Notes: generated by a model not told the origin, from the letters alone. A DNA stretch of 64,000 bases from an uncultured bacterium (GCA_963834265.1 CAWIAU010000001.1:263572-327571), one strand, 5' to 3'. Shown: positions 9,440 to 41,974, counted from the stretch's first letter. Translations and numbers: made by a program.

Positions 9440-9655
9440 TTTTATTACTTTCGCACTCTTCACTCCGTGATTAAGCAATGAGAATTGCTGGTCCGTAGTG
9501 ATGAGTGTGAATAAGCTGGTAGGCGAATGTATAAGAGGGGTTGTGACATCACAAAAACCTTTTGTGGAAGTCCGGATTTATCCGGGTTTCTGCATAAGGG
9601 AGCAGGATCTACCATGTCCTGCATAAGGTTACAAATTGCTGAGCAAGTAGAACAG
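9440..9655 (+). other. 23S domain I expansion (~170 nt more than E. coli)
   Basis: About 215 nt lie between conserved GCGAAaccGGaatAGCCCA and GGAAAGacagGcc. My recalled E. coli alignment has about 45 nt there. Confidence 0.55.
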
Positions 9656-12595: not shown

Positions 12596-13050
12596 CGTGA
12601 GACAGTTCGGTTTATATCCGCTGTGGACGTCAGGAAATTTGAGAGGATTTGCCCCTAGTACGAGAGGACCGGGGTGAACGCACCGCTGGTGTACCAATTG
12701 TCATACCAATGGCATCGTTGGGTAGCTATGTGCGGAACAGATAAGCGCTGAAAGCATATTAAGCGCGAAACTGACCTCAAGATTAGATTTCCCTATGAGG
12801 GCCCTGATAGACGATCAGGTTGATAGGTACACGGTGTACGCATAGCAATATGTTTAGCCTAAGTATACTAATAGCCCCACAGATTTTTTGTGAACCATGA
12901 GACCAATTTACTTCGGTGAGTTGATCTCATGGGAATGTATTTGGCTAGTTATTTGTAGTAACTAATAAACAACGTCCGTTTATATTAACTTTTGTCAGTC
13001 ATATCGACACCACATGGACACCGAGTGAGTGAGACTTACGCCTCCCTCCC

Positions 13051-13162
13051 TCGGTGCCCATGGCGCGAGGGAAACACCTGTTCCCATCCCGAACACAGCA
13101 GTTAAGCCTCGCAGCGGTTACAATACTTGGGTTTTAACCCTGGGAAAATAGCACGGTGCCGA
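13051..13162 (+). rRNA. rrf: 5S ribosomal RNA
   Basis: Helix I TCGGTGCC/GGTGCCGA. Conserved CCCATCCCGAACACAGCAGTTAAGCC (loop B/helix III region). 112 nt. Confidence 0.9.
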
Positions 13163-13173
13163 TTTATATAGAA

Positions 13174-13815: not shown

Positions 13816-14063
13816 AGTTACATAATAGCAGAAATAATTTTTGATTTGTTCTCCCAAGAAGCGGAAGCAAAAAATAGTGAAATAAATTCCCAATATCCTG
13901 CGATTTATAATGTTAAGAGATTATTCCGTAATTTAGCAAGAGTGTAATAAGTTTGTCACTTATTCTAGAATTAGGGTTGATTTTAGAATAAAGGCGTTTA
14001 TAATTCTATTTGAATAGACCAACCCCAAGGCTTATTCCACACGAAACTATCAATATTAGAATT

Positions 14064-18761: not shown

Positions 18762-18826
18762 GTTGGCAGTTATTTACTAATATAAATAGTAAAAACTAAA
18801 ACAAAAACCAAAAACAAAAACAAATA

Positions 18827-21800: not shown

Positions 21801-24800
21801 TAACTATTACAGGCACTAACAGTGGCGAAGGCAGTACGCCGGGCCTTAGTGTTACTTACGGATTCGGTGCTAACACCGCCGTACAGGGCAGCACCCAGCT
21901 TACCTGTGCTTCCGGCAGTGGTGATCTGTCCGGTGGCGGCACTGTCATAACTCTGGGCAGCGGCGGTACCTGCGGTGCCATAACCATATCCGAAGCCCCC
22001 GTCTTTGATACCAGCGTTACCACCCCGCTTATTACTTACGGCGGCGCCCTGACCATCCAGACCACCGCTACCGGTGGCGCTGATGATCTGATCTTTAAAA
22101 CCGCCGGCACGGAAGTTATGCGCCTGCTGGAAAACGGCAATATTTATCTGGAGAAAGGCACTAATGATGTCACCATAGCCGTAAATGCTCCCGGTGCCGC
22201 CGCCACCTACACCTTTGACGGAGCCAGCGGAACTATCCTGACCACTGCCAACTACGTTACTAACCTCGACGCTACCTACGTAAACGAATCCCAGTCGCCG
22301 GCCGCCGGCGATGTCTCCGGTTCATTCACAGCCGGTTTCAGTGTTAACGATGTCCAGAACAATGCCGTTGATCTGGGAGCCGAGACAGTCGGGGACTACA
22401 TGGCCAACCTCGGCACCGTAGTCGGATTAACTATTACAGGCACTAACAGTGGCGAAGGCAGTACGCCGGGCCTTAGTGTTACTTACGGATTCGGTGCTAA
22501 CACCGCCGTACAGGGCAGCACCCAGCTTACCTGTGCTTCCGGCAGTGGTGATCTGTCCGGTGGCGGCACTGTCATAACTCTGGGCAGCGGCGGTACCTGC
22601 GGTGCCATAACCATATCCGAAGCCCCCGTCTTTGATACCAGCGTTACCACCCCGCTTATTACTTACGGCGGCGCCCTGACCATCCAGACCACCGCTACCG
22701 GTGGCGCTGATGATCTGATCTTTAAAACCGCCGGCACGGAAGTTATGCGCCTGCTGGAAAACGGCAATATTTATCTGGAGAAAGGCACTAATGATGTCAC
22801 CATAGCCGTAAATGCTCCCGGTGCCGCCGCCACCTACACCTTTGACGGAGCCAGCGGAACTATCCTGACCACTGCCAACTACGTTACTAACCTCGACGCT
22901 ACCTACGTAAACGAATCCCAGTCGCCGGCCGCCGGCGATGTCTCCGGTTCATTCACAGCCGGTTTCAGTGTTAACGATGTCCAGAACAATGCCGTTGATC
23001 TGGGAGCCGAGACAGTCGGGGACTACATGGCCAACCTCGGCACCGTAGTCGGATTAACTATTACAGGCACTAACAGTGGCGAAGGCAGTACGCCGGGCCT
23101 TAGTGTTACTTACGGATTCGGTGCTAACACCGCCGTACAGGGCAGCACCCAGCTTACCTGTGCTTCCGGCAGTGGTGATCTGTCCGGTGGCGGCACTGTC
23201 ATAACTCTGGGCAGCGGCGGTACCTGCGGTGCCATAACCATATCCGAAGCCCCCGTCTTTGATACCAGCGTTACCACCCCGCTTATTACTTACGGCGGCG
23301 CCCTGACCATCCAGACCACCGCTACCGGTGGCGCTGATGATCTGATCTTTAAAACCGCCGGCACGGAAGTTATGCGCCTGCTGGAAAACGGCAATATTTA
23401 TCTGGAGAAAGGCACTAATGATGTCACCATAGCCGTAAATGCTCCCGGTGCCGCCGCCACCTACACCTTTGACGGAGCCAGCGGAACTATCCTGACCACT
23501 GCCAACTACGTTACTAACCTCGACGCTACCTACGTAAACGAATCCCAGTCGCCGGCCGCCGGCGATGTCTCCGGTTCATTCACAGCCGGTTTCAGTGTTA
23601 ACGATGTCCAGAACAATGCCGTTGATCTGGGAGCCGAGACAGTCGGGGACTACATGGCCAACCTCGGCACCGTAGTCGGATTAACTATTACAGGCACTAA
23701 CAGTGGCGAAGGCAGTACGCCGGGCCTTAGTGTTACTTACGGATTCGGTGCTAACACCGCCGTACAGGGCAGCACCCAGCTTACCTGTGCTTCCGGCAGT
23801 GGTGATCTGTCCGGTGGCGGCACTGTCATAACTCTGGGCAGCGGCGGTACCTGCGGTGCCATAACCATATCCGAAGCCCCCGTCTTTGATACCAGCGTTA
23901 CCACCCCGCTTATTACTTACGGCGGCGCCCTGACCATCCAGACCACCGCTACCGGTGGCGCTGATGATCTGATCTTTAAAACCGCCGGCACGGAAGTTAT
24001 GCGCCTGCTGGAAAACGGCAATATTTATCTGGAGAAAGGCACTAATGATGTCACCATAGCCGTAAATGCTCCCGGTGCCGCCGCCACCTACACCTTTGAC
24101 GGAGCCAGCGGAACTATCCTGACCACTGCCAACTACGTTACTAACCTCGACGCTACCTACGTAAACGAATCCCAGTCGCCGGCCGCCGGCGATGTCTCCG
24201 GTTCATTCACAGCCGGTTTCAGTGTTAACGATGTCCAGAACAATGCCGTTGATCTGGGAGCCGAGACAGTCGGGGACTACATGGCCAACCTCGGCACCGT
24301 AGTCGGATTAACTATTACAGGCACTAACAGTGGCGAAGGCAGTACGCCGGGCCTTAGTGTTACTTACGGATTCGGTGCTAACACCGCCGTACAGGGCAGC
24401 ACCCAGCTTACCTGTGCTTCCGGCAGTGGTGATCTGTCCGGTGGCGGCACTGTCATAACTCTGGGCAGCGGCGGTACCTGCGGTGCCATAACCATATCCG
24501 AAGCCCCCGTCTTTGATACCAGCGTTACCACCCCGCTTATTACTTACGGCGGCGCCCTGACCATCCAGACCACCGCTACCGGTGGCGCTGATGATCTGAT
24601 CTTTAAAACCGCCGGCACGGAAGTTATGCGCCTGCTGGAAAACGGCAATATTTATCTGGAGAAAGGCACTAATGATGTCACCATAGCCGTAAATGCTCCC
24701 GGTGCCGCCGCCACCTACACCTTTGACGGAGCCAGCGGAACTATCCTGACCACTGCCAACTACGTTACTAACCTCGACGCTACCTACGTAAACGAATCCC

Positions 24801-27388: not shown

Positions 27389-27451
27389 AGAAGACTTGAT
27401 TAATTGTTGTTATTTTACTATGCTAAACATAAGAAAAAAGAAGGGAACACT

Positions 27452-27922
27452 GTGGCCAAAACCGATAAAGACAATGATGTTTCAATAAAAAAAACCAGAA
27501 GACTCAAGATGGAGATCAAAAAAGCCCACCTGATAATAATGGCTTTGTTGCTGATTATGGCCGGTGGCGCTTATTTTGGCTATCAGAAATACGATGAAGT
27601 AAACCAGGAGAAGCAGCGTTTATCTGATCCTCAGGAAGCGGCCCGTCAGGAAACCCAGCGAACTAAAGAGCAAGTTGCAAAGCTTATAGATGTACCCCAA
27701 GGCGAGGATCCGACAATCGCAAGTGTGGTCGATGCCTCAAAGTTATCCAATCAATCGTTTTTTAAGAACGCAAAAAATGGTGACAAGGTACTTATGTATG
27801 CCCAAGCCAAAAAAGCTATCCTGTATCGTCCTGACTCCAATAAGATTATAGAAGTCGCACCGATCAACATCGGTAACAACGAACAGCCAGCCGCACCAGC
27901 AGGTACTGAGACGCCACAGTAG
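27452..27922 (+). CDS. single-pass membrane protein, partner of giant 1 (paralog of 41342-41974)
   Basis: GTG at 27452 follows GAAGGGA. Alternative starts are TTG 27404 and ATG 27509. TM segment AHLIIMALLLIMAGGAYFGY. The C-terminal domain ..PTIASVVDASKLSNQSFFKNAKNGDKVLMYAQAKKAILYRPDSNKIIEVAPINIG is about 55% identical to its paralog. Confidence 0.65.
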   Translation: MAKTDKDNDVSIKKTRRLKMEIKKAHLIIMALLLIMAGGAYFGYQKYDEVNQEKQRLSDPQEAARQETQRTKEQVAKLIDVPQGEDPTIASVVDASKLSNQSFFKNAKNGDKVLMYAQAKKAILYRPDSNKIIEVAPINIGNNEQPAAPAGTETPQ

Positions 27923-28264: not shown

Positions 28265-28669
28265 ATGTCTAAAAATTCAGCTCCCAACCAACTAAAACCC
28301 CTAACCATACATCCTGAAACTGCCGTAGAGCTTTATGGAGCCGGCGTCCGCCGACTTCGCAAACCTAAACCGATGACTACCCCTAATGGACTTGATACTA
28401 ACTCTTTAGATTTCCGTGGCGTTCGTGCTGCCATGGACGTTGTCGGCGTATTTCCCCATACATATGATGCTGACGGCCGTCGCAATCCAGTAGATCCAAA
28501 TGAAGTAAAAACTCATATGGACTCGAGCTTGGCCACAATTAGAGAAGCTGGCCGCGTTCCGTTGGCTGATGATTTCGTTGGAGGCTATAAACGTATGACA
28601 GAAGCGTTCACTCGTCCACAAGAGCCAATAACACCCGCAGAACAAATTCACATAACGCAACGGCAATAA
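28265..28669 (+). CDS. hypothetical protein (134 aa)
   Basis: ATG ORF directly behind the promoter. No recognisable family. Confidence 0.5.
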   Translation: MSKNSAPNQLKPLTIHPETAVELYGAGVRRLRKPKPMTTPNGLDTNSLDFRGVRAAMDVVGVFPHTYDADGRRNPVDPNEVKTHMDSSLATIREAGRVPLADDFVGGYKRMTEAFTRPQEPITPAEQIHITQRQ

Positions 28670-29680
28670 GCCTAAAACTTTTAGCACAATGTTTATCTCC
28701 AGATAAGTACTTACTTATTGATGACGAGCTTTAACCCAACAACGGGCGGGCTTTTGTATTCTCAGCTCCTCCGAAGTGACAAAAATCTTATAGATCAAAA
28801 CGTCTTATACTTGGTGTTGCGGGAAGAGTTTTTCAGAATCGTCGTGATTTAGACGGTCCAGCTGGGCAAAATCTACCAATGCCAGCCTAAGCCAGTTTGT
28901 GGGCAAGGATGTGGATTGATTGAGCGGCGTTCTAGAAGGTCGTACAATAATGTGGTTTACAATTTAGCAAAATGTTATTTGGTGAATACCTTTTGTGGTA
29001 TAACCGTAAATTCGGGTATACCAAATAATGTATAATTTTGGAAATCCATAATTTATTTAAAATTGATTTTGAGCTACTTTATTATGAATTTTAGTGTCCG
29101 GAATTTGTATTTTCGATATCTTAAATTCTAATTTCTTACCAGAAATAATTACAACGTTAAGATTTCGCAGTCTATTATTTTCGATCATTATCAAAATATC
29201 CATTTAATTCTGAGCAATTTTGTAATTAGCAACGTCCTCTACCGAGCTTAGTAGAGTAGTCTGTGGAAAAATCATAAAAAAAGACATTGTATAATATACT
29301 TTCTGATTCCGCAGATTGAACCAAACGATTATATACCTGAAGTAAATATACAAACACTTGAGGCTAAGTACTCCTATCTGTTATGGAATCTTTTGCCAAG
29401 TTCGAAACCAACCTAAACAACGGGTCATAGAAATAAAATTAAATACATGTTGAGTACAGCTGAAAATTCCTGCCGGAACAGGAATAATAGGTCAGTTCTG
29501 TCGTATAGGGTAGTCTGTGTACAAAAATATTTACCTCTGTTATGGAATGTAATGCTAATGTTTTCGTCTGAGTACAAAAGTAGTACATTGGTATTGCATA
29601 GGTCACCCCTAATGCTTACACTAAGCATTAGCTTTCATAACAGATTAAGCAGCATAAAGTTGAACACAAAATAAACTCAA

Positions 29681-32600
29681 ATGTATCAAGAAACTCAAAC
29701 CAAAAGCCGTTCCAGAGTGTACGTTACCGTAGGTGATGCGGCGGAGCTATTAGGTGTTTCTATCGATACTGTCCGACGTTGGGAAAAGAGCGGCAAACTG
29801 CATGCTAAACGATTAGATGGCAAGAATCGATACTTCCCCAAAGATGAATTAGAGCAATTCAGAGCTCATCAGCCCCTGTCTACAACAGAAGTGGCTAAGC
29901 GACTTAAGACCTCTGCTTCCAGCGTACGTCGTCTCGAAGCTAGTGGCCAGATAACGGCTGACCGTGCTGAGAACGGAAAGCGTCTTTACTCTTTGGCAAG
30001 TATAGTTGACTATTTGGAAAGTAAATCTGCTCCATTGCAACCAGCAATATCAGATAAACAGGAATTAGCGTCAGGTGTAGCCCTGAATCAGGTAACACCG
30101 ATGCCGGCACTGACTATCGCACCGCCACCGCGTCAACATACCCCGCGTCATGGATTAAAGCATCATTTACAGCAGCCTAAGAAGTTATGGGCTACTCATT
30201 CCGGCAGATTAAATTACCATATTTTTCAAAAAGTAATCATCTATAGTGCTACGGCATGTGTCTCCGTAGTGATGATATTGACGCTATTCTTTCTGATGTT
30301 TCCGGGAACTGCCCGCACGACATTTTATAATCAATCCCATAACAGTGGTAAACAGTTTGTTTCGAAACAAGCTGACGGTCTCTTAGTACGGGCCTTCAAG
30401 CCCTTTACAAATGCAGCCCTGGGCGTTGTCGAGGTAGTTAACCCGGAAGTCCGCAATACTATTCAGCCTAGGGCCATAGATGACGTGAATGAAGTATTCG
30501 CGCCTGACTCGCAGGGAAATATTATCACCAGGTACACCTTTAGCCCGCCGAACTCATCTTATCTGAAGATACCAGATCAGGGGTTAGTTACAAATCTGAA
30601 TAGTGAATTTGTCGGAGGCTATAAACCGGGCGAAAAGAAAGGAGATCTGGCTATCTTACCTCTGGGAGGTGATCAGCTTAAAGATAAGTCACTTAATGGT
30701 GACCAGCTGGCCGATGGAGCAATTAAGCTTAGCCATCTTTCTCCTACTTTGATAGCTTCTCTGAAGAGCGGAGGCACAGGAGGAAGTACTTTTGTAAGCG
30801 GTGCTGGCAGCGCCGGACCAGCAGGCCCATCAGGAGTTAACGGGGCGGCTGGAGCTGCAGGTGCCAACGGTGCTCCCGGTTCTCAAGGAGTAGCAGGTCC
30901 AGCCGGAGCAGCCGGACCTGCTGGATCACAAGGAGCTAACGGGGCACCGGGTGCTCCAGGAGCACAAGGCCCGACTGGTCCGCAAGGACCTCCAGGCGCT
31001 GGAGCTACGATAGCCTTGCAAGAGTCTGACGGTAGTCCGCTGGTTAGCGGCGTATCAAACATACAGTTTGGACCCACCAGCAACTCTTCTGACGAGTTTA
31101 TCCTGACAGACTTAACAGGAGGTCAGGTACGAATACAACTGGGCACTACGGTGCTTCTAACAACGAATTACACTACTACTCTGGATCCTATATATCTCAA
31201 TATTGGAGAATCTCCCGGGATCGGAGATATTACGGGCAGCTTCAGCGGGGGTTTGCAGGTAGCACCTGATGCGGTGGCGCTAGGTACCGATACCACTGGT
31301 AATTATTTAACTACTCTATCTGGCAGCACGGGTCTAATTGTCAGTGGATCGGGTTCAGAAAATGCGGCAGCTAGCATTGCTTTAGACGTAGTTACTACTG
31401 GTACAACAGGATTGTCCAGTGCCAACTCCGGGCTTGAGTTGGGTCCCGACGGTCTGCGTTTGCTTGGTGGATGCGCAACAAACCATGTATTGAAATGGAA
31501 CGGAACTACTTGGGCATGTGCTACCGATAACAGTAGTAGCGCTGCTGATGTTAAGGAAAATGGTGTAATTATTACTCCCACAGCAACAGCTATAGATTTT
31601 TTCGGTTCAGATTTTAATGTAACCAACAATGTTACGCAGGCAAATATAGCATTAGATTATATTAACTCGGGAATTACTCGTCGCACGGGGGCAGAGATAA
31701 TAAGCGGCAACTGGGCATTTAATGATAATAGCTTTACGCTGCAAGATAATGCTGACTCTAGTAAAAAACTTGCAATAGAATTATCGGGAATTACAACAGG
31801 AACAACGCGTACTTTAACAGCCCCAAACGCCAGCGGGACCATCATTAGCACGGGGAATTTAACTGACATTGTAAATGTGGGTACGCTCACAAGCGGTGTT
31901 TGGCAGGGTTCTGTTGTAGCCGTGCAGTATGGGGGAACAGGGGCCAACACCTTTACGTCTAACGGATTGCTATATGGAAATGGCAACAGTGCTGTACAGG
32001 CCACATCCGCGGGCACGGCCGGACAATTATTAGTTGCAAATGCTAGCAGTGTACCAACGTTTGCTACTCTATCGGGTGATGCGACCTTATCTGGCGCCGG
32101 CCTGCTAACATTAGCTAACTCGGGCGTTACAGCAAATACTTATGGAAGCTCAACTCAGGTACCGGTTTTTGCGGTTGACTCAAAAGGTAGAATCACTAAT
32201 GTAACTAATACAACAATAACAGGGGTCGCACCGGGTGGAACCGCCGGAGGTGATTTGAGTGGAACTTATCCCAACCCAAGCGTTTCAAGAATCAATGGAG
32301 TCGCTCTTGGTAGTACAACGGCAACGGGAGGAAATTTGCTGCTTGCCAATGGTACAAGCTGGGTCAGTCAAGCTCTTTCGGGAGATTTAAGTGTAAATGG
32401 GGCAGGCGTTGCCTCGATAGCAAACAACGCCATCAGTACCTCAAAAATTTTGGACGCCAATGTAACAAACATTAAATTAGCAAACTCCTCCTTAACAGTT
32501 ATGGCTGGAACAGGATTATCTGGCGGAGGAGCTATAAGTTTAGGTGGCACGACTACGCTTAACTTAGCTAATACGGCTGTATCGGCAGGGAGTTACGGCA

Positions 32601-35600
32601 GTAGCTCCGCGGTCCCTACTTTTACTGTAGATTCCCAGGGACGGCTGACAATGGCTGGTAATACAACCTTAGCTAATGCGGGACTGCAGAATTCAAGTTT
32701 GACCTTAACAGCGGGCAATGGACTAGCCGGGGGAGGAAGCGTTGCTTTAGGCGCATCTACAAGCCTTAACGTTCAGTATGGTGCTATCGCGAATACATCT
32801 GTCCAAGGCAATACTCAGATTACTTGTACGCCTGGTGCTGGTAATTTGTCCGGAGGGGGTACGGTTATAACACTGGGCTCAGGTGGAGCATGTGGTGCTA
32901 TTAATACGAATGCAGCGGTAAATTTTGCTACAAGTGTTACAACTCCACTACTTACGTCCATTGGTCCGATTACAATACAATCTGATCCCAGTGTTGGTAG
33001 TGACGACATAATATTCAATAGTGCCGGTAGCGAGATTTTTCGTTTACTTGAAACAGGGGAATTTAAGTTTGAACGCGGCTCAAACGATGCGTTCTTTTCT
33101 ATTGCAACTCCTAGTGGCGCGCCTGCTACTTATACTTTTTCCGGCGTATCCGGAACTGTCCTTACTAGTTCAAATTTCAGCAGTAGCTTAGACAGTTCTT
33201 ATGTGAACATAGGCGAATCCCCGTCAGCTGGCGACATTAACGGATCATTTGGGGGAGGTTTAAGCATTGGATCAGACGCAGTTGCTTTAGGGACAGACAC
33301 TACAGGCAACTATCTGGCTACACTTAGCGGAGGCACAGGATTGACAGTTACTGGATCTGGCAGCGAAAGTGCTGCGGTGACTTTAGCGCTCGATGTAATA
33401 ACTACAGGAACAACAGCTACTACAAACTCTAACTCTGGCTTAGAACTCGGTAGTGACGGGCTAAGATTGCTGGGGGGTTGTGCTTCTAATGAGATACTCA
33501 AATGGAATGGATCAACTTGGGCTTGCGCTGCAGATAATGGTACCGGAGCTGCTCCCACACTTCAAGAGAATTATGACAATGATCCCAATGGAGCGAATGT
33601 GATAATTGGATTGTCCAATGTTGACGGGGGTATATTTATTCGTGATAACGCGTCGCCAATTGGCGGTAACTTATTTGCCGTACAAAGCGACGGAGGTAGC
33701 ACTACTTATTTAGGTATCACTGCAAGTGGATCCAGCGTATCGGGAACTTTCTCGGCGACCGGTGCTATTAATGGCGCCACCATTTCTGGTGGCTCTCTAA
33801 ACTCTACTTCGGTTAATGGTCTTAGTGTTTCGGGGGGCATTATAACTGTGGGTACCTGGAATGGTACTGCTCTAACAGACTCTTATGTTTCTGATACTCT
33901 AACCTCAAGTATTTTCATAGGTTCAGGAAGTACATCAAATGCTGTAGATTTAGCTAGTGCCGAAGTAGCCGGCAGCCTGGCCGACGGAAATGTCTCAGAT
34001 ACCTTAACCATAGGTGCTTCCGGCAGCGTGGCTGACGGAGCTTTAAGTGTCAACGTGACTAAACTGGGGACTGCCATAGACCTGGCTACAGCTGAGGTAG
34101 CCGGTAATCTGAGAGCTAATAATCTGCAGAGTGCCGGAGCCGACCTTGGCGCGACTAATGTTAACATTGACCTGAGCAATACCAACGGAAGCTTCGTCAC
34201 CAACTTAACCGTAGACGGTACTATTACTGCCGCTACCTTTGCCGGCAACCTGACAGGTAATGTCACCGGCAACGCTTCAACCGCTACCGCTCTGGCTAAC
34301 AATCCGACAGATTGCGGAGCCAACCAGTTCGCCATTACCATTGCCGCCAGCGGTAACCTGACCTGCGCCGCGCTGACTGATGCCGATATACCGAATAACA
34401 TTACAATTGATCTGGCTGCCAACGCCACCACAGCTGTTAATCTGGTTGGTTCCGGCAGTACCACCAATGCCGTAGATCTGGCTACAGCTGAGGTATCCGG
34501 CAACTTACGGGCTAACAACCTGCAGAACGCCGCCGCCGACCTGGGAGGAGCTGACGTCAACATTAACCTCAGCAATACCAACGGAAGCTTCGTGACTAAT
34601 CTGACGGTTGACGGCACCATCACCGCCGCCACCTTTGCCGGCGCTCTTACGGGCAATGTCACCGGTAATGTCACCGGCAACGCTTCAACCGCTACCGCTC
34701 TGGCTAACAATCCGACAGATTGCGGAGCCAACCAGTTCGCCATTACCATTGCCGCCAGCGGTAACCTGACCTGCGTGTCCTTAACAGATCTGGATATACC
34801 GAACAACATTACAATTGATCTGGCTGCCGCCGCTACCGCGCTGGCTAACAACCCCACTGACTGTAGCGCTGATACTTACGCTACTACTATCGCTGCCAGC
34901 GGTAACCTGACTTGTGCTTCCATTACCGACGCTTCATTATCTGCTAACGTCACTAAACTGGGCAGTAGTATCCAAAACAGTGAAGTAGACGACGACCTGA
35001 CTATTAGTGCTTCCGGCAGCGTGGCTGACGGAGCTTTAAGTGTCAACGTGACTAAACTGGGGACTGCCATAGACCTGGCTACAGCTGAGGTAGCCGGTAA
35101 TCTGAGAGCTAATAATCTGCAGAGTGCCGGAGCCGACCTTGGCGCGACTAATGTTAACATTGACCTGAGCAATACCAACGGAAGCTTCGTCACCAACTTA
35201 ACCGTAGACGGTACTATTACTGCCGCTACCTTTGCCGGCAACCTGACAGGTAATGTCACCGGCAACGCTTCAACCGCTACCGCTCTGGCTAACAATCCGA
35301 CAGATTGCGGAGCCAACCAGTTCGCCATTACCATTGCCGCCAGCGGTAACCTGACCTGCGCCGCGCTGACTGATGCCGATATACCGAATAACATTACAAT
35401 TGATCTGGCTGCCAACGCCACCACAGCTGTTAATCTGGTTGGTTCCGGCAGTACCACCAATGCCGTAGATCTGGCTACAGCTGAGGTATCCGGCAACTTA
35501 CGGGCTAACAACCTGCAGAACGCCGCCGCCGACCTGGGAGGAGCTGACGTCAACATTAACCTCAGCAATACCAACGGAAGCTTCGTGACTAATCTGACGG

Positions 35601-38600
35601 TTGACGGCACCATCACCGCCGCCACCTTTGCCGGCGCTCTTACGGGCAATGTCACCGGTAATGTCACCGGCAACGCTTCAACCGCTACCGCTCTGGCTAA
35701 CAATCCGACAGATTGCGGAGCCAACCAGTTCGCCATTACCATTGCCGCCAGCGGTAACCTGACCTGCGTGTCCTTAACAGATCTGGATATACCGAACAAC
35801 ATTACAATTGATCTGGCTGCCGCCGCTACCGCGCTGGCTAACAACCCCACTGACTGTAGCGCTGATACTTACGCTACTACTATCGCTGCCAGCGGTAACC
35901 TGACTTGTGCTTCCATTACCGACGCTTCATTATCTGCTAACGTCACTAAACTGGGCAGTAGTATCCAAAACAGTGAAGTAGACGACGACCTGACTATTAG
36001 TGCTTCCGGCAGCGTGGCTGACGGAGCTTTAAGTGTCAACGTGACTAAACTGGGGACTGCCATAGACCTGGCTACAGCTGAGGTAGCCGGTAATCTGAGA
36101 GCTAATAATCTGCAGAGTGCCGGAGCCGACCTTGGCGCGACTAATGTTAACATTGACCTGAGCAATACCAACGGAAGCTTCGTCACCAACTTAACCGTAG
36201 ACGGTACTATTACTGCCGCTACCTTTGCCGGCAACCTGACAGGTAATGTCACCGGCAACGCTTCAACCGCTACCGCTCTGGCTAACAATCCGACAGATTG
36301 CGGAGCCAACCAGTTCGCCATTACCATTGCCGCCAGCGGTAACCTGACCTGCGCCGCGCTGACTGATGCCGATATACCGAATAACATTACAATTGATCTG
36401 GCTGCCAACGCCACCACAGCTGTTAATCTGGTTGGTTCCGGCAGTACCACCAATGCCGTAGATCTGGCTACAGCTGAGGTATCCGGCAACTTACGGGCTA
36501 ACAACCTGCAGAACGCCGCCGCCGACCTGGGAGGAGCTGACGTCAACATTAACCTCAGCAATACCAACGGAAGCTTCGTGACTAATCTGACGGTTGACGG
36601 CACCATCACCGCCGCCACCTTTGCCGGCGCTCTTACGGGCAATGTCACCGGTAATGTCACCGGCAACGCTTCAACCGCTACCGCTCTGGCTAACAATCCG
36701 ACAGATTGCGGAGCCAACCAGTTCGCCATTACCATTGCCGCCAGCGGTAACCTGACCTGCGTGTCCTTAACAGATCTGGATATACCGAACAACATTACAA
36801 TTGATCTGGCTGCCGCCGCTACCGCGCTGGCTAACAACCCCACTGACTGTAGCGCTGATACTTACGCTACTACTATCGCTGCCAGCGGTAACCTGACTTG
36901 TGCTTCCATTACCGACGCTTCATTATCTGCTAACGTCACTAAACTGGGCAGTAGTATCCAAAACAGTGAAGTAGACGACGACCTGACTATTAGTGCTTCC
37001 GGCAGCGTGGCTGACGGAGCTTTAAGTGTCAACGTGACTAAACTGGGGACTGCCATAGACCTGGCTACAGCTGAGGTAGCCGGTAATCTGAGAGCTAATA
37101 ATCTGCAGAGTGCCGGAGCCGACCTTGGCGCGACTAATGTTAACATTGACCTGAGCAATACCAACGGAAGCTTCGTCACCAACTTAACCGTAGACGGTAC
37201 TATTACTGCCGCTACCTTTGCCGGCAACCTGACAGGTAATGTCACCGGCAACGCTTCAACCGCTACCGCTCTGGCTAACAATCCGACAGATTGCGGAGCC
37301 AACCAGTTCGCCATTACCATTGCCGCCAGCGGTAACCTGACCTGCGCCGCGCTGACTGATGCCGATATACCGAATAACATTACAATTGATCTGGCTGCCA
37401 ACGCCACCACAGCTGTTAATCTGGTTGGTTCCGGCAGTACCACCAATGCCGTAGATCTGGCTACAGCTGAGGTATCCGGCAACTTACGGGCTAACAACCT
37501 GCAGAACGCCGCCGCCGACCTGGGAGGAGCTGACGTCAACATTAACCTCAGCAATACCAACGGAAGCTTCGTGACTAATCTGACGGTTGACGGCACCATC
37601 ACCGCCGCCACCTTTGCCGGCGCTCTTACGGGCAATGTCACCGGTAATGTCACCGGCAACGCTTCAACCGCTACCGCTCTGGCTAACAATCCGACAGATT
37701 GCGGAGCCAACCAGTTCGCCATTACCATTGCCGCCAGCGGTAACCTGACCTGCGTGTCCTTAACAGATCTGGATATACCGAACAACATTACAATTGATCT
37801 GGCTGCCGCCGCTACCGCGCTGGCTAACAACCCCACTGACTGTAGCGCTGATACTTACGCTACTACTATCGCTGCCAGCGGTAACCTGACTTGTGCTTCC
37901 ATTACCGACGCTTCATTATCTGCTAACGTCACTAAACTGGGCAGTAGTATCCAAAACAGTGAAGTAGACGACGACCTGACTATTAGTGCTTCCGGCAGCG
38001 TGGCTGACGGAGCTTTAAGTGTCAACGTGACTAAACTGGGGACTGCCATAGACCTGGCTACAGCTGAGGTAGCCGGTAATCTGAGAGCTAATAATCTGCA
38101 GAGTGCCGGAGCCGACCTTGGCGCGACTAATGTTAACATTGACCTGAGCAATACCAACGGAAGCTTCGTCACCAACTTAACCGTAGACGGTACTATTACT
38201 GCCGCTACCTTTGCCGGCAACCTGACAGGTAATGTCACCGGCAACGCTTCAACCGCTACCGCTCTGGCTAACAATCCGACAGATTGCGGAGCCAACCAGT
38301 TCGCCATTACCATTGCCGCCAGCGGTAACCTGACCTGCGCCGCGCTGACTGATGCCGATATACCGAATAACATTACAATTGATCTGGCTGCCAACGCCAC
38401 CACAGCTGTTAATCTGGTTGGTTCCGGCAGTACCACCAATGCCGTAGATCTGGCTACAGCTGAGGTATCCGGCAACTTACGGGCTAACAACCTGCAGAAC
38501 GCCGCCGCCGACCTGGGAGGAGCTGACGTCAACATTAACCTCAGCAATACCAACGGAAGCTTCGTGACTAATCTGACGGTTGACGGCACCATCACCGCCG

Positions 38601-41272
38601 CCACCTTTGCCGGCGCTCTTACGGGCAATGTCACCGGTAATGTCACCGGCAACGCTTCAACCGCTACCGCTCTGGCTAACAATCCGACAGATTGCGGAGC
38701 CAACCAGTTCGCCATTACCATTGCCGCCAGCGGTAACCTGACCTGCGTGTCCTTAACAGATCTGGATATACCGAACAACATTACAATTGATCTGGCTGCC
38801 GCCGCTACCGCGCTGGCTAACAACCCCACTGACTGTAGCGCTGATACTTACGCTACTACTATCGCTGCCAGCGGTAACCTGACTTGTGCTTCCATTACCG
38901 ACGCTTCATTATCTGCTAACGTCACTAAACTGGGCAGTAGTATCCAAAACAGTGAAGTAGACGACGACCTGACTATTAGTGCTTCCGGCAGCGTGGCTGA
39001 CGGAGCTTTAAGTGTCAACGTGACTAAACTGGGGACTGCCATAGACCTGGCTACAGCTGAGGTAGCCGGTAATCTGAGAGCTAATAATCTGCAGAGTGCC
39101 GGAGCCGACCTTGGCGCGACTAATGTTAACATTGACCTGAGCAATACCAACGGAGCCTTCGTCACCAACTTAACTCTGGATGGCAGCATAACCGCACCAA
39201 TAGTGCAGAATGCTGGAGCAATAACGCTAGGCACGACGGCAACAGCCGGAGGGGACGATATAGTACTACAAACAGCTGGAGTCGAGCGGTTTAGAATATT
39301 AGAAAACGGCAATATATCCAACGCCAATAGCTGGACAATAGATTTGTCCAGTACCTCTGCCAGGACGCTTACTGTAACCAATAGCAATACTGGTGTGGCC
39401 AGCTTGAGTGTCGAAGGAGGAGGTACTTTTGGCAATACGCTTACCGTATCGACTGGAGGACTGACAGTAACAGGGAACAGCACCATTACGGGTACACTTA
39501 CCGGTCTCACAGGTCTGACGGTGGCTTCAGGTGGGGCATCTGTTAGTGGCGGCCTAAATAATAATAGTGGAGGTATTACTAATGCCGGAGCAATCTCTGG
39601 CGCTACGACGATATCTGCATCAGGGGCAGTAACTGCCGCCACCGTCACCAATACAATAAATGGCCTGATAATTAATTCGGGCGCAGTATCGGGAGCCACA
39701 ACTATATCAGCTTCAGGCAACATTTCGATTAACGGAACTAATGTGTATACGCAAAACAGCCAGAACGGCATAACCGTAGCTGCCTGTGCAGCTGATCAAT
39801 ATATAGGTAATGGAGTAAGGCTATCCGGTGGAATTGTTACAGCTGGTTCTTGCAGGACTGATGCGACCGGTATTTCTGACTCAAGGCTAAAAGATAATGT
39901 ATCTGAGTACGATTCTTCAAACATATTAGATAAGTTAGCTCAACTTAAGCCAGTTACTTATAATTTTAATGACACGTATAAAGATCTAACTGGTAAACAA
40001 GAGGACCAAGGACTTCAATATGGTTTCTTGGCTCAGGATATGAGGAATATTTTTCCGGACTTAATTAGCGAATATAACGACAGTGGTTATTTGCAAATAA
40101 ATTACCATGCGCTCTATGCGATCCTGACTTCTTCTGTCCTGGAATTAGATAAAAAAGTTAAAAATCTCAGCATGAATAGCTTCACCGATCTTGATGGCAG
40201 CGGACTCGAGATTAAGCTAAAATACGACCAGAAATTTAGTATTAAAAATGAGCAGAACGAAGACAAAGCTGTTATTGATGCTCAAGGCAATGCGATATTT
40301 GACGGTGAAATTACAACAAGAAGTATAAATGCCGGATCAATCTTAACTTCTGGTGTTGGTCAGCGGTATGATGCTGCCGATACGGATCTTGAGACAGGGG
40401 AAGTCGTAATCGTTGATGATAACGGACAAGTGCACCGCTCAACTGCAGCCAACCAGAGAGGTCTTATTGGAGTAATTAGTAGCAATGGGGGACTTATGGT
40501 CGGCTCAAGTTCCAGTAGCAATAGTGTCAACGTAGCTGCGGCAGGAAATGTGAGTGTAAGAGTTTCTACGGAGAATGGTGTTATAAGTGCCGGTGATCCA
40601 TTAACTTCATCATCGATTCCAGGTGTGGCCATGAAATCCAGCGGCGGCTCCACAATAGGAGTGGCCACAAGCGGATTCAGCGGTTCCGGACAAGGGCAAA
40701 TTACAATGAGTGCGAGCAACAATAGCTCGAGCTTAGCAGGATTAGGTGATCTGAATAGTCTCGAAAATAAAGTTAGTGATCTGGAGGAGCAGGTTCAGAC
40801 TATCCAAAATGGGCTTCAAACAAACGGTGGACAAAATATTGACCTCACCAACCTAACCATAGGCCGAGCTACTATTACACTGGATATGTTGGTTGAGGGG
40901 GCTCTGATAGTCAATGGACCTGCTGAGTTCAAGGGTAGCACGATCTTTGATAGCATCGTAACCTTTGGAGACAGCATTATGGTGAATGGCGACCTAAGCG
41001 TCAAAGGTACAGCTACGTTTAATAATAATGCCGGGGGATATGCTGTTATTTCGGCTGGCAAACAATCCGTTCATGTTAGCTTCACTAAGCCTTATGCTAC
41101 TCCTCCAATTGTCAATATATCACTGGGCGGAGGTCAGTTTGCTCAATACGCCTACAACAATGTTACGGAAACAGGCTTTGATATAGTTCTGGCAATACCG
41201 GCATCATCGAACCTGCAGTTTACTTGGACTGCTATGAGCATCAACAGCGCCAACACCTTTGTTCAGAACTAA
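29681..41272 (+). CDS. giant membrane-anchored fibre-like protein 2 (3,863 aa): 2 x HTH, TM, collagen, repeats, S74-type domain
   Basis: Uninterrupted 11,592-nt ORF. Residues 13-60 and 66-113 are MerR/excisionase-type HTH (VTVGDAAELLGVSIDTVRRWEKSGKL..). The TM helix spans residues 184-207. There are about 22 Gly-X-Y triplets and 5.17 identical 331-aa repeats. ISDSRLKDNV..YGFLAQDMRNIFPDLI..LQINYHALYAIL is the S74 pattern, and 465 aa run from the Ser to the C-terminus. Confidence 0.9.
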   Translation: MYQETQTKSRSRVYVTVGDAAELLGVSIDTVRRWEKSGKLHAKRLDGKNRYFPKDELEQFRAHQPLSTTEVAKRLKTSASSVRRLEASGQITADRAENGKRLYSLASIVDYLESKSAPLQPAISDKQELASGVALNQVTPMPALTIAPPPRQHTPRHGLKHHLQQPKKLWATHSGRLNYHIFQKVIIYSATACVSVVMILTLFFLMFPGTARTTFYNQSHNSGKQFVSKQADGLLVRAFKPFTNAALGVVEVVNPEVRNTIQPRAIDDVNEVFAPDSQGNIITRYTFSPPNSSYLKIPDQGLVTNLNSEFVGGYKPGEKKGDLAILPLGGDQLKDKSLNGDQLADGAIKLSHLSPTLIASLKSGGTGGSTFVSGAGSAGPAGPSGVNGAAGAAGANGAPGSQGVAGPAGAAGPAGSQGANGAPGAPGAQGPTGPQGPPGAGATIALQESDGSPLVSGVSNIQFGPTSNSSDEFILTDLTGGQVRIQLGTTVLLTTNYTTTLDPIYLNIGESPGIGDITGSFSGGLQVAPDAVALGTDTTGNYLTTLSGSTGLIVSGSGSENAAASIALDVVTTGTTGLSSANSGLELGPDGLRLLGGCATNHVLKWNGTTWACATDNSSSAADVKENGVIITPTATAIDFFGSDFNVTNNVTQANIALDYINSGITRRTGAEIISGNWAFNDNSFTLQDNADSSKKLAIELSGITTGTTRTLTAPNASGTIISTGNLTDIVNVGTLTSGVWQGSVVAVQYGGTGANTFTSNGLLYGNGNSAVQATSAGTAGQLLVANASSVPTFATLSGDATLSGAGLLTLANSGVTANTYGSSTQVPVFAVDSKGRITNVTNTTITGVAPGGTAGGDLSGTYPNPSVSRINGVALGSTTATGGNLLLANGTSWVSQALSGDLSVNGAGVASIANNAISTSKILDANVTNIKLANSSLTVMAGTGLSGGGAISLGGTTTLNLANTAVSAGSYGSSSAVPTFTVDSQGRLTMAGNTTLANAGLQNSSLTLTAGNGLAGGGSVALGASTSLNVQYGAIANTSVQGNTQITCTPGAGNLSGGGTVITLGSGGACGAINTNAAVNFATSVTTPLLTSIGPITIQSDPSVGSDDIIFNSAGSEIFRLLETGEFKFERGSNDAFFSIATPSGAPATYTFSGVSGTVLTSSNFSSSLDSSYVNIGESPSAGDINGSFGGGLSIGSDAVALGTDTTGNYLATLSGGTGLTVTGSGSESAAVTLALDVITTGTTATTNSNSGLELGSDGLRLLGGCASNEILKWNGSTWACAADNGTGAAPTLQENYDNDPNGANVIIGLSNVDGGIFIRDNASPIGGNLFAVQSDGGSTTYLGITASGSSVSGTFSATGAINGATISGGSLNSTSVNGLSVSGGIITVGTWNGTALTDSYVSDTLTSSIFIGSGSTSNAVDLASAEVAGSLADGNVSDTLTIGASGSVADGALSVNVTKLGTAIDLATAEVAGNLRANNLQSAGADLGATNVNIDLSNTNGSFVTNLTVDGTITAATFAGNLTGNVTGNASTATALANNPTDCGANQFAITIAASGNLTCAALTDADIPNNITIDLAANATTAVNLVGSGSTTNAVDLATAEVSGNLRANNLQNAAADLGGADVNINLSNTNGSFVTNLTVDGTITAATFAGALTGNVTGNVTGNASTATALANNPTDCGANQFAITIAASGNLTCVSLTDLDIPNNITIDLAAAATALANNPTDCSADTYATTIAASGNLTCASITDASLSANVTKLGSSIQNSEVDDDLTISASGSVADGALSVNVTKLGTAIDLATAEVAGNLRANNLQSAGADLGATNVNIDLSNTNGSFVTNLTVDGTITAATFAGNLTGNVTGNASTATALANNPTDCGANQFAITIAASGNLTCAALTDADIPNNITIDLAANATTAVNLVGSGSTTNAVDLATAEVSGNLRANNLQNAAADLGGADVNINLSNTNGSFVTNLTVDGTITAATFAGALTGNVTGNVTGNASTATALANNPTDCGANQFAITIAASGNLTCVSLTDLDIPNNITIDLAAAATALANNPTDCSADTYATTIAASGNLTCASITDASLSANVTKLGSSIQNSEVDDDLTISASGSVADGALSVNVTKLGTAIDLATAEVAGNLRANNLQSAGADLGATNVNIDLSNTNGSFVTNLTVDGTITAATFAGNLTGNVTGNASTATALANNPTDCGANQFAITIAASGNLTCAALTDADIPNNITIDLAANATTAVNLVGSGSTTNAVDLATAEVSGNLRANNLQNAAADLGGADVNINLSNTNGSFVTNLTVDGTITAATFAGALTGNVTGNVTGNASTATALANNPTDCGANQFAITIAASGNLTCVSLTDLDIPNNITIDLAAAATALANNPTDCSADTYATTIAASGNLTCASITDASLSANVTKLGSSIQNSEVDDDLTISASGSVADGALSVNVTKLGTAIDLATAEVAGNLRANNLQSAGADLGATNVNIDLSNTNGSFVTNLTVDGTITAATFAGNLTGNVTGNASTATALANNPTDCGANQFAITIAASGNLTCAALTDADIPNNITIDLAANATTAVNLVGSGSTTNAVDLATAEVSGNLRANNLQNAAADLGGADVNINLSNTNGSFVTNLTVDGTITAATFAGALTGNVTGNVTGNASTATALANNPTDCGANQFAITIAASGNLTCVSLTDLDIPNNITIDLAAAATALANNPTDCSADTYATTIAASGNLTCASITDASLSANVTKLGSSIQNSEVDDDLTISASGSVADGALSVNVTKLGTAIDLATAEVAGNLRANNLQSAGADLGATNVNIDLSNTNGSFVTNLTVDGTITAATFAGNLTGNVTGNASTATALANNPTDCGANQFAITIAASGNLTCAALTDADIPNNITIDLAANATTAVNLVGSGSTTNAVDLATAEVSGNLRANNLQNAAADLGGADVNINLSNTNGSFVTNLTVDGTITAATFAGALTGNVTGNVTGNASTATALANNPTDCGANQFAITIAASGNLTCVSLTDLDIPNNITIDLAAAATALANNPTDCSADTYATTIAASGNLTCASITDASLSANVTKLGSSIQNSEVDDDLTISASGSVADGALSVNVTKLGTAIDLATAEVAGNLRANNLQSAGADLGATNVNIDLSNTNGAFVTNLTLDGSITAPIVQNAGAITLGTTATAGGDDIVLQTAGVERFRILENGNISNANSWTIDLSSTSARTLTVTNSNTGVASLSVEGGGTFGNTLTVSTGGLTVTGNSTITGTLTGLTGLTVASGGASVSGGLNNNSGGITNAGAISGATTISASGAVTAATVTNTINGLIINSGAVSGATTISASGNISINGTNVYTQNSQNGITVAACAADQYIGNGVRLSGGIVTAGSCRTDATGISDSRLKDNVSEYDSSNILDKLAQLKPVTYNFNDTYKDLTGKQEDQGLQYGFLAQDMRNIFPDLISEYNDSGYLQINYHALYAILTSSVLELDKKVKNLSMNSFTDLDGSGLEIKLKYDQKFSIKNEQNEDKAVIDAQGNAIFDGEITTRSINAGSILTSGVGQRYDAADTDLETGEVVIVDDNGQVHRSTAANQRGLIGVISSNGGLMVGSSSSSNSVNVAAAGNVSVRVSTENGVISAGDPLTSSSIPGVAMKSSGGSTIGVATSGFSGSGQGQITMSASNNSSSLAGLGDLNSLENKVSDLEEQVQTIQNGLQTNGGQNIDLTNLTIGRATITLDMLVEGALIVNGPAEFKGSTIFDSIVTFGDSIMVNGDLSVKGTATFNNNAGGYAVISAGKQSVHVSFTKPYATPPIVNISLGGGQFAQYAYNNVTETGFDIVLAIPASSNLQFTWTAMSINSANTFVQN
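30800..31006 (+). repeat. collagen-like Gly-X-Y tract (~22 uninterrupted triplets)
   Basis: GAGSAGPAGPSGVNGAAGAAGANGAPGSQGVAGPAGAAGPAGSQGANGAPGAPGAQGPTGPQGPPGAGA, with Gly at every third position. Confidence 0.9.
34013..39152 (+). repeat. in-frame tandem repeat, 5.17 x 993 bp, no differences seen between copies; each unit has degenerate internal sub-repeats
   Basis: TGCTTCCGGCAGCG occurs at 34015, 35008 ... 38980 (5 x 993). The antisense ORFs recur at exactly 993-bp spacing with identical translations. Confidence 0.95.
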
Positions 41273-41341: not shown

Positions 41342-41974
41342 ATGCCGAGTATTCACGTGGAAGAGCCAATACCAGAGAAAGAACCAAATGAGCCGAAATT
41401 GGAAACTCCGGATAAAGCAATAAAATCCGAACCAGAGGAAATTACACCGGAAACTAAATCTGAATCTGTGGCAGAACCAGCCACTGCGTCACCGGTTGCG
41501 CAAGCACCAGTCACTGGGCGTTCGCATTTGGACTACAAGAAGTTTATTTTTCCCGGAAGCTTTGTGATACTGCTGGCTCTTATTATTCTGGTTATTAGTC
41601 TTGTCAATGACAGGAGTCAGTTGAAGCAGGAGAATTCGCGGCTTTCAAGCCAAACGCAGAAATCTACCCAGGATCAGAGCAATAAAGAAGCAGAAGATCT
41701 CAAAAAAGAGATCAGCCAATATTTGGAATTGCCGGCAGATGAAGTACCTACTGTAGCTACCGTGGTGGATGCTAACAAAGTAAAAGGGCAGAGCTTCTTT
41801 GTGAACGCACAGAATGGCGATAAAGTATTGTTGTTTGCTACAAGTGGCAAAGCCATTCTGTACAGACCAGGTACTAAAAAAATTGTCGAAGTTTCTCCGA
41901 TTAATTTAAATCAAAACCAACAATCAGGCACTCCACCTCCGTCCACTACTCTCACCCCCAAAACGAGCCGATGA
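41342..41974 (+). CDS. single-pass membrane protein, partner of giant 2 (paralog of 27452-27922)
   Basis: RBS AAGGGAG. Acidic N-terminus. TM segment FIFPGSFVILLALIILVISLV. C-terminal domain ..PTVATVVDANKVKGQSFFVNAQNGDKVLLFATSGKAILYRPGTKKIVEVSPINL. Confidence 0.75.
   Translation: MPSIHVEEPIPEKEPNEPKLETPDKAIKSEPEEITPETKSESVAEPATASPVAQAPVTGRSHLDYKKFIFPGSFVILLALIILVISLVNDRSQLKQENSRLSSQTQKSTQDQSNKEAEDLKKEISQYLELPADEVPTVATVVDANKVKGQSFFVNAQNGDKVLLFATSGKAILYRPGTKKIVEVSPINLNQNQQSGTPPPSTTLTPKTSR

Follow-up and report, generated by a model that had tools for sequence, protein, structure and literature searches.

A giant protein of Patescibacteria predicted to join a cytoplasmic tandem HTH module to a phage tail-fibre-like surface fibre

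We analysed a stretch of 64,000 nucleotides from an uncultured bacterium (GCA_963834265.1 CAWIAU010000001.1:263572-327571, referred to below as the window), in which a single gene of 11.6 kb encodes a protein of 3,863 amino acids. The gene is real, and it joins a cytoplasmic DNA-binding module, consisting of two winged helix-turn-helix (HTH) domains, to a giant surface fibre of the phage tail-fibre type. The protein is predicted, with good support from its sequence, to be a type II (N-in/C-out) single-pass membrane protein of a Saccharimonadia-like patescibacterial cell, and judged by sequence it belongs to an HTH-HTH-transmembrane (TM) family that comes almost wholly from Patescibacteria. We regard this architecture and topology as highly probable. 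As for function, we favor, with a probability of roughly 0.55, a trimeric adhesin fibre that is assembled with the help of a Peptidase_S74 domain and whose cytoplasmic HTH pair autoregulates its own promoter. The coordinates of all features are collected in Table 1.

The open reading frame (ORF) begins with ATG and contains no internal stop codon, in agreement with the first-pass annotation of this DNA, which had been made from the sequence alone. Its middle part is an array with a period of 993 nt (331 amino acids), in which adjacent copies differ by 10 mismatches in total, all of them near the two ends of the array. An earlier count of 5.17 identical copies was therefore essentially right; our recount gives 5.21, and the copies are near-perfect rather than all identical. 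Because 993 is a multiple of 3, the reading frame is unaffected by the number of repeats. Furthermore, the end-to-end architecture recurs in many independent genomes (see below), which implies that it is under selection and rules out a chimeric or decayed gene.

Both N-terminal segments are of the MerR/excisionase type, as had been proposed. The Pfam profiles HTH_17 (9.3e-18, 64.7 bits against a cut-off of 27, best at residues 14-62) and MerR (3.1e-17, 62.5 bits against a cut-off of 28.2) each matched over two stretches, and AlphaFold modelled residues 12-115 with a predicted local distance difference test score (pLDDT) of ~90 as two strand-helix-helix-hairpin-helix units. Foldseek placed these units on BldC-DNA (root-mean-square deviation 1.4-1.9 Å, TM-score 0.8), RacA-DNA and MerR-family-DNA complexes and on mycobacteriophage Xis, with RacA-DNA as the top match of the HTH model, and the pair as a whole matched the tandem winged-HTH protein TraN. 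Consistent with these matches, the sequence of HTH1 aligns along its length with BldC, and HTH2 aligns with the MerR-type HTH of a cobalamin-binding protein. The recognition helix of HTH1, GVSIDT[VIL]RRW, is nearly invariant across very distant lineages, and the slightly broader pattern [GD]VS[IVL]DT[VIL]RRW was present in 110 of 158 family proteins. The model shows neither the C-terminal coiled-coil dimerization helix nor the effector domain of MerR; a disordered linker and then the TM helix follow HTH2, and both the length and the sequence of this linker differ among homologs.

No signal peptide was found at the N terminus of the 3,863-residue protein. A TM helix had been placed at residues 184-207, and the hydrophobic core does lie there, within a longer modelled helix; nearly all family members have exactly one TM helix at residues ~140-260. 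Across 64 family members, the mean number of Lys and Arg residues was 3.48 on the N-terminal flank of the TM helix versus 2.12 on the C-terminal flank, with the N-terminal count being the larger in 39 and the smaller in 9. In addition, 38 of the 39 cysteines lie in the ectodomain, as regularly spaced pairs. The lack of a signal peptide, the single TM helix, the positive-inside bias and the position of the cysteines and of the collagen, S74 and lectin-like modules, all C-terminal to the TM helix, together argue for an N-in/C-out orientation, so that the topology suggested by the first-pass annotation is a reasonable and well-supported prediction. The suggestion that fibre and HTH pair are "mechanically coupled" fared less well: disorder is predicted for the 56-residue segment that links HTH2 to the TM helix, which argues against literal mechanical coupling.

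In alignments of homologs, a conserved motif and an invariant Pro mark the outer end of the TM helix. Next comes a conserved extracellular juxtamembrane module with the motif ..DVNxVF..SSYLKIPDQGLVxNLNSxFVxGxxPG..GDLAILP, for which no Pfam family match was found. Beyond it lies a collagen-like stretch in which we counted 22 Gly-X-Y triplets, as had been estimated, and which scored just under the cut-off of Pfam Collagen (26.6 bits against 27.2, residues 379-437). The NCBIfam Scl models matched only the Gly-X-Y part, far below their cut-offs, and anchoring of the Scl/BclA type (LPXTG or exosporium) together with a globular head was absent. The two Cys-loop motifs described earlier are both present, with the spacing LKW-x4-W-x-C and not x5; homologs P0004 and P0016 share the motif, as does a paralog that begins with a signal peptide.

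The S74 domain, also known as the intramolecular chaperone (ICA) domain, matched Pfam Peptidase_S74 far above the cut-off (1.2e-13, 51.6 bits against 22, profile positions 1-56 of 58), and its catalytic motif, a Ser with a Lys five residues later, is intact (S3399-D-S-R-L-K3404). Thus, of the three profile matches anticipated in the first-pass annotation, HTH_17 and S74 are significant and Collagen falls just short, and its distance of 465 residues from the motif Ser to the C terminus is correct. The domain aligns with the ICA domain of the eukaryotic protein MYRF (7dc3), with SDSRLK over ADLRAK, and the region matches a PHROG long tail fibre; an SDxxxK motif also occurs in the signal-peptide paralog and in homologs P0161 and P0162. 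S74 is not the terminal domain, either here or in relatives: 402 residues follow it, comprising a helix, a decoration-like domain, a coiled coil, a beta-rich stretch and a lectin-like end. The decoration-like and lectin-like assignments were made with Foldseek on the confident parts of an otherwise poor model of the C-terminal region. In these searches the decoration-like domain matched HFTV1 8qsy_MJ (E 5e-4), TW1, Sf11 and the N-terminal base of phi29 gp8.5, and premature phi29 gp12 was also matched by the C-terminal model. The lectin-like domain (model pLDDT 65-82) matched Helix pomatia agglutinin 2ccv (E 9e-4, probability 1.0, TM-score 0.57, 13% identity), as well as SLL-2 and discoidin II. 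In characterized examples, collagen, S74 and the decoration-like and H-type lectin folds each form trimers, which makes the trimeric fibre proposed earlier plausible. Since the S74 domain is predicted to be extracellular and the HTH pair cytoplasmic, S74 autocleavage could not release the HTH pair, and the mechanism of MYRF does not apply.

A search with residues 1-340 recovered metagenomic proteins with the same HTH-HTH-TM-juxtamembrane layout; in several of these, the sequence reaches collagen or the Cys-loop motif before the contig stops. A profile of the same residues detected 260 cluster representatives (clustered at 50% identity) at E<=1e-30 and 1,464 at E<=1e-10, and family members reach 5,145 amino acids. 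Among species-representative genomes there were 104 relatives: 11 loci hold complete ORFs of 2,491-3,550 codons beginning with the HTH pair, and one further relative (L001), whose ORF is open at the edge of the fetched locus, lies on a closed chromosome. The best relatives are labelled Saccharimonadia/Saccharibacteria, Daviesbacteria, Microgenomates, Levyibacteriota, Woesebacteria, Andersenbacteria or "Patescibacteria group". The survey for the same domain order that the first-pass annotation had recommended thus shows that the HTH-HTH-TM-fibre architecture is recurrent. At Pfam thresholds, MerR/HTH_17 was found in all 14 giants examined and S74 in 4 of the 14. Hidden Markov models of the C-terminal modules, run on 83 members of at least 1,200 amino acids (many of those without modules being cut by contig ends), detected S74 in 20, some with 2-3 copies, the decoration-like domain in 22 and a terminal lectin-like domain in 37, and at least 19 large members combine S74 with the same lectin-like C-terminal end. 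Short HTH-HTH matches of 120-220 amino acids look like contig-truncated fragments rather than soluble paralogs. We found no description of the family in the literature on giant, S74, HTH or tail-fibre proteins of Patescibacteria (also called the candidate phyla radiation, CPR), our coverage of which is incomplete, and in the literature searched there was likewise no characterized bacterial counterpart, as had been stated. Two or three S74 domains per chain are seen in P0033, P0055 and L021, which would imply cleavage into several pieces. Many metagenome-assembled genomes labelled "uncultured Gammaproteobacteria" (loci L013, L016, L025, L030, L033, L036-L038, L040, L042, L043, L048-L053 and others) carry family genes and upstream DNA nearly identical to Daviesbacteria/Levyibacteriota loci, and these labels are therefore probably wrong.

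Patescibacteria account for much of bacterial diversity, and their cultivated members live attached to host cells. How they recognize hosts and how the switch between free and attached states is regulated have been described as unknown (PMC11665869). The family reported here is widespread in the group, includes some of the largest genes in these loci, and places a probable host-binding fibre and a DNA-binding module in one and the same molecule, and its conserved promoter motif leads to a directly testable hypothesis of DNA binding. With it, the phage S74 chaperone is seen in cellular proteins other than MYRF and those of Bdellovibrio, and S74 domains occupy internal and multiple positions. 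What is new relative to the first-pass annotation is the patescibacterial family itself, the HTH-less signal-peptide paralog, the promoter motif, a partner gene, and a characterized analogue in the mosaic adhesive trimeric (MAT) fibres.

The clue to what the HTH pair may bind comes from the DNA upstream of the family genes. In the window, TGCATAGG occurs once, at 29595-29602, over the putative -35 box of the giant gene. The same promoter layout is kept in Saccharimonadia-type relatives, in which the consensus ACTATGCATAAGCTTTCWTAACAG holds the palindrome CTTATGCATAAG over the -10 and transcription start site (TSS) region; in other lineages a palindrome lies downstream of the promoter, ahead of the start codon, and in many cases stops 5-6 nt short of the ATG. 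Counting k-mers in the 400 nt upstream of family genes identified ATGCATAG/CCTATGCA in 33 of 62 regions versus 5-6 in control segments. Counted on both strands across 916 kb, the core T[GA]C[AC]TAGG reaches 4.34 copies per kb within the 300 nt preceding family genes, compared with 0.40 per kb in the remaining non-ORF DNA and 0.065 per kb where ORFs cover the sequence; the motif T[GA]C[AC]TAGG(T) is thus ~11-fold enriched upstream of family genes relative to other non-ORF DNA. The motif-bearing upstream regions lie within the set L002-L061 and span several patescibacterial lineages. Motif copies are arranged as 28-bp palindromes, CCTAKGCA-N12-TGCMTAGG, whose gap is exactly 12 in 37 of 40 instances and whose inner consensus is ttGaTTAAtCaa (an example from a relative is CCTATGCATTGATTAATCAATGCATAGG), or as direct repeats at 22-nt spacing (14 cases). 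No such site was found upstream of the HTH-less paralog, and degenerate copies with 2 mismatches allowed occurred at chance-level counts. Several more motif copies stand in long noncoding stretches 0.5-3.6 kb upstream of the family gene in L008 (7425-8992, with five copies of GATCAAgcttTGCATAGGT), L014 (~9003-9085) and L041 (~9190-9375).

Two other accounts of the motif were considered and rejected. A general promoter element or genome-wide repeat does not fit the single occurrence of TGCATAGG in 64 kb or the rarity of the core in other non-ORF DNA. As for an RNA element, rejected as the main reading, Rfam gave no match in 28600-29760 even at permissive E-values, RNAalifold found no shared structure among nine related leaders (-0.31 kcal/mol), and mismatches in the palindromes are more often C.A (7) than U.G (2) on the sense strand; the mismatch pattern, the lack of a consensus fold and the direct repeats, which could not pair with each other, all point to an element acting at the DNA level. 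In Microgenomates-type members, palindromes that lie in 5' leaders would nonetheless fold into hairpins covering the ribosome-binding site. The simplest inference is that the HTH pair binds the motif and regulates its own gene, and the two HTH domains may read the two conserved blocks, which lie ~11 bp apart. The location of the operator, over the -35 and -10/TSS regions or between promoter and start codon, suggests repression.

Taken together, these features suggest the following mechanism. The ectodomain would trimerize through collagen, the S74 chaperone, the decoration-like domain and the H-type-lectin-like end, and the protein would assemble into a long, trimeric fibre on the cell surface, similar to the tail fibre of a phage. 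S74 is expected to cut itself at Ser3399, giving a membrane-anchored stalk (residues 1-3398) and a 465-residue distal trimer that would either stay noncovalently attached or be shed. The fibre would then act as an adhesin for a host-cell glycan, a role toward which we lean. In the cytoplasm, the two BldC/MerR-like winged HTH domains, carried on a flexible linker, would bind the T[GA]C[AC]TAGG(T) operator overlapping their own promoter, which would make the protein a membrane-tethered regulator similar to ToxR and CadC in logic, though not in ancestry, that most likely represses its own gene. We put the regulatory part of this proposal at even odds. One possible elaboration, which is tentative and on balance doubtful, is that S74-driven, collagen-zipped trimerization outside the cell gathers three tandem-HTH pairs under the membrane, that the gathered HTH domains gain avidity for operator arrays spaced at 20-22 bp at their own promoter and perhaps a few others, and that transcription in this way reports whether fibres are assembled, intact or host-engaged. 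If true, such a device would be a prokaryotic counterpart of MYRF logic acting across a membrane and a previously unknown route of attachment sensing for Patescibacteria.

Several points weigh against the autoregulated adhesin fibre favored here, in which DNA binding, autoregulation, trimerization, cleavage and adhesion are all inferred. On the fibre side, the ~400 residues after S74 are atypical for phage ICA domains; the model of the C-terminal region has a mean pLDDT of 50, with the S74 part below 50 and unreliable for the S74 fold; the Pfam H_lectin match is weak (19.4 bits against a cut-off of 24, residues 3797-3851); and the copy number of the perfect 1-kb repeats may depend on the assembly and is perhaps an estimate. 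On the regulatory side, the operator in the window is a single perfect 9-mer, the 8-mer of which is expected ~2.4 times in 64 kb, and the weight of this copy therefore derives from its position and from the family-wide enrichment, not from the copy itself. The strict core is absent from 17 of 61 family upstream regions, the -35 and -10 boxes are weak by the Escherichia coli consensus and neither was flagged by a generic promoter scan, and another regulator could bind the motif. Finally, the long linker, modelled as disordered, seems to offer no obvious path for transferring a signal across the membrane.

There is an alternative in which the HTH pair is not a transcription factor at all, and instead positions or anchors the fibre as a RacA-like chromosome tether or a RodZ-like protein binder, the motif being bound by some other factor. 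RodZ is an HTH-bearing bitopic membrane protein that binds MreB, and RacA-DNA was the top Foldseek match; the near-invariant recognition helix of HTH1 would also fit one conserved partner better than diverse operators. However, this invariant helix is paired with an equally conserved motif at the promoters of these very genes, as autoregulation predicts, and a chromosome tether should have many sites throughout the genome, whereas the motif occurs once in the 64-kb window. We consider this alternative unlikely. Improbable in our judgment is a concrete form of the contact-sensing idea raised by the first-pass annotation, in which binding to a host, pulling or loss of the distal part would trigger regulated proteolysis near or in the membrane and so free the HTH pair, in the manner of RsgI/anti-sigma or Notch-type signalling. 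In its favor, a DNA-binding domain and a giant ectodomain share one chain and are connected by a single TM helix, the invariant Pro, conserved motif and juxtamembrane module lie at and beyond the outer end of that helix, a conserved operator exists, and control of the attached/free switch in Patescibacteria has been described as unknown (PMC11665869). Nevertheless, we found no protease site, partner protease or released fragment, the S74 cut site is outside the cell and ~3,200 residues from the membrane, and regulators of the ToxR type need no release. In addition, operator sites were found almost exclusively before family genes, which points to autoregulation rather than to a wide regulon.

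It could also be argued that we are dealing with a tail-fibre gene of a prophage or tailocin, an assembly chimera or a pseudogene, because phage fibres typically contain S74, collagen and decoration-like folds and perfect 1-kb repeats are hard to assemble. This is highly improbable. The flanking genes are housekeeping genes, with no phage genes adjoining the giant ORF; the repeat length is a multiple of three; and the in-frame HTH-TM-fibre arrangement is found in dozens of independent genomes, including the closed chromosome of L001. In line with this, though as weak negative evidence, a search of IMG/VR viral contigs with the N-terminal profile returned only single-HTH excisionase-like genes, and one with the C-terminal module, run in a single-protein mode that detects close relatives only, returned no relatives.

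Comparison with characterized systems shows that the giant protein lacks at least one defining feature of each of them. For the fibre half, the nearest characterized cellular analogue is the MAT fibre family of Bdellovibrio bacteriovorus (PMC10769870), in which the S74 domain of Bd3182, bearing SDxxxK, cleaves itself. MAT fibres are cell-encoded, phage-like long trimeric fibres of a bacterium living on bacteria (PMC10769870), as the fibre here is predicted to be, and in both cases there are multiple paralogs, variable in their middles and tips, of which a subset carries S74 with SDxxxK. The family is set apart from MAT fibres, as these were described, in three ways: MAT proteins have a signal peptide and a beta-rich N-terminal domain of ~130 amino acids, without a TM helix or DNA-binding domain, in place of the HTH-HTH-TM arrangement; they are ~1,000 amino acids long, compared with 2,500-5,000 for the giant family; and their S74 domain is terminal, whereas here ~400 residues with the decoration-like and lectin-like domains follow it. 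In phage endosialidase, T5 pb1 and phi29 gp12, S74 or an analogous chaperone similarly nucleates trimer folding and is then cut off, but these are virion proteins without a membrane anchor, and the chaperone is the last domain and is discarded. No characterized protein other than MYRF is known to combine a DNA-binding domain with an S74/ICA domain and a TM helix; the ICA domains align at the catalytic motif, and ICA-driven trimerization is central to MYRF function. The earlier comparison with MYRF, including the difference in domain order, was correct. In MYRF the order is DNA-binding domain-ICA-TM, the first two are both cytoplasmic and cleavage releases the DNA-binding domain, which is of the Ndt80 type; here the order is HTH-HTH-TM-fibre-S74, the ICA domain is outside, and the DNA-binding domains are of the MerR/BldC type.

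For the cytoplasmic half, Streptomyces BldC, the N-terminal domain of RacA and phage Xis share the fold without the MerR coiled coil or effector domain, and TraN of pIP501 likewise has two such HTH domains in one chain. BldC binds direct repeats head to tail as multimers (PMC5859096), and family promoters carry 22-bp-spaced direct repeats. All of these are small, soluble proteins; here, by contrast, the tandem HTH module is fused to a TM helix and a giant ectodomain, and DNA binding is a prediction. ToxR, CadC and TcpP resemble the giant protein in having an N-terminal cytoplasmic DNA-binding domain, one TM helix and an extracytoplasmic domain, and in the proposed regulation from the membrane. 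They differ in that their winged helices are of the OmpR type rather than the MerR type and in having small periplasmic sensors and no fibre ectodomain, and there is no homology.

The giant gene is preceded, 2.3 kb upstream, by a paralogous fibre gene encoding 2,853 amino acids, with a cleavable-looking signal peptide in place of the HTH-TM part, 8.8 perfect copies of a 209-residue repeat, the Cys-loop motif, S74 (residues 2493-2556, SDSRVK) and a lectin-like end; it looks like a secreted relative sharing modules with the anchored fibre. Directly before its start codon, at 18791-18824, is an AAAAAC tandem repeat of 5.5 copies, which could be a leader or a phase-variation tract. Directly after each of the two giant genes lies a partner gene; the two partners are paralogs of each other, and in 8 other loci (L003, L004, L005, L009, L023, L024, L027 and L066) partner homologs follow complete family genes at a distance of 10-296 nt. 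The partner protein had no match in Pfam, NCBIfam or sequences of the Protein Data Bank. It is probably an assembly or anchoring factor, and its occurrence after the HTH-less paralog as well suggests that it serves the fibre rather than the HTH pair.

The other neighbours are housekeeping genes, encoding the C terminus of GyrA, GpsA, ribosomal protein S1, a short IF-2, PriA, Fmt, FtsA and a class II ribonucleotide reductase. The 16S and 23S rRNA genes are unlinked, being 5.4 kb apart with ORFs and two minus-strand tRNA genes between them, and the 23S gene spans 3,732 nt versus a model of 2,925 positions, implying ~800 nt of insertions. This rRNA arrangement and the relatives found indicate a CPR genome close to Saccharimonadia, and the bacterium is probably tiny and host-dependent.

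Table 1. Positions in the window of the giant fibre gene, its domains and upstream elements, and of neighbouring genes
Feature	Position	Strand	Remarks
Giant HTH fibre gene	29681..41272	+	ATG start, 3,863 codons plus stop, 0 internal stops
Winged HTH 1 (residues 14-62), BldC/MerR-like	29720..29866	+	Recognition helix GVSIDTVRRW; Pfam, model, BldC alignment, Foldseek
Winged HTH 2 (residues 66-115)	29876..30025	+	Second HTH_17 stretch; modelled fold
Disordered Pro/His/Lys/Arg-rich cytoplasmic linker (residues 117-172)	30029..30196	+	pLDDT <50
Single TM helix, hydrophobic core (residues 184-207)	30230..30301	+	Model helix 173-214, pLDDT 86-92
Conserved extracellular juxtamembrane module (residues ~228-340)	30362..30700	+	Alignments of homologs
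Collagen-like stretch, 22 Gly-X-Y triplets (residues 376-441)	30806..31003	+	Direct inspection, Pfam, NCBIfam
Cys-loop motif 1, GLELGPDGLRLLGGC-x5-LKW-x4-W-x-C (residues 584-613)	31430..31519	+	Direct inspection
Cys-loop motif 2 (residues 1253-1282)	33437..33526	+	Direct inspection
Tandem 331-residue repeats, 5.21 copies	34003..39180	+	Each unit with internal sub-repeats and paired cysteines
Peptidase_S74/ICA domain (residues 3399-3461)	39875..40063	+	Ser3399 at 39875-39877, Lys3404 at 39890-39892
Beta-rich domain like trimeric phage capsid-decoration/head-fibre base (residues 3554-3682)	40340..40726	+	Model pLDDT 75-88
Predicted long helix/coiled coil (residues 3688-3709)	40742..40807	+	Model
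C-terminal H-type-lectin-like domain (residues 3763-3858)	40967..41254	+	Foldseek; weak Pfam
Putative promoter/operator	29594..29643	+	From conservation
-35-like box TTGCAT	29594-29599	+	Overlapped by family motif TGCATAGGT (29595-29603)
-10-like box TACACT	29617-29622	+	17-nt spacer after -35-like box
Conserved block ACTAAGCATTAGCTTTCATAACAG	29620-29643	+	Kept in Saccharimonadia-type relatives
Paralogous fibre gene	18827..27388	+	2,853 amino acids; signal peptide in place of HTH-TM
Partner gene of giant HTH fibre gene	41342..41974	+	210 amino acids, single-pass membrane protein, conserved C-terminal domain of ~70 residues
Partner gene of paralog	27404..27922	+	172-amino-acid ORF, single TM helix, same conserved C-terminal domain
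rRNA genes	2285-3754, 9161-12892, 13050-13164

Some additional features of these loci deserve mention. An AT-rich stretch of ~1 kb before the giant gene (28690-29680) contains no ORF of at least 80 amino acids and no Rfam match, and is unusually long for an ORF-free stretch in a small genome. In some Daviesbacteria-type loci, an excisionase-type HTH and PIN-domain pair of the toxin-antitoxin kind is encoded divergently from the family gene (L008, 8992-9835, minus strand; L048, 8634-9522, minus strand). Within the window, the segment separating the rRNA genes from the fibre genes encodes a Fic/DOC family protein (14010-15158, plus strand), and a 969-codon ORF beside IF-2 (47584-50493, plus strand) lacks a Pfam or NCBIfam match. 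In eight loci (L029, L030, L033, L035, L038, L042, L056 and L065), divergent genes on the minus strand, ending ~300-1,100 nt before the family gene, encode secreted proteins of ~260 amino acids with a decoration-like ("tulip") domain; since they share the motif-bearing intergenic region, they may be coregulated with the family gene.

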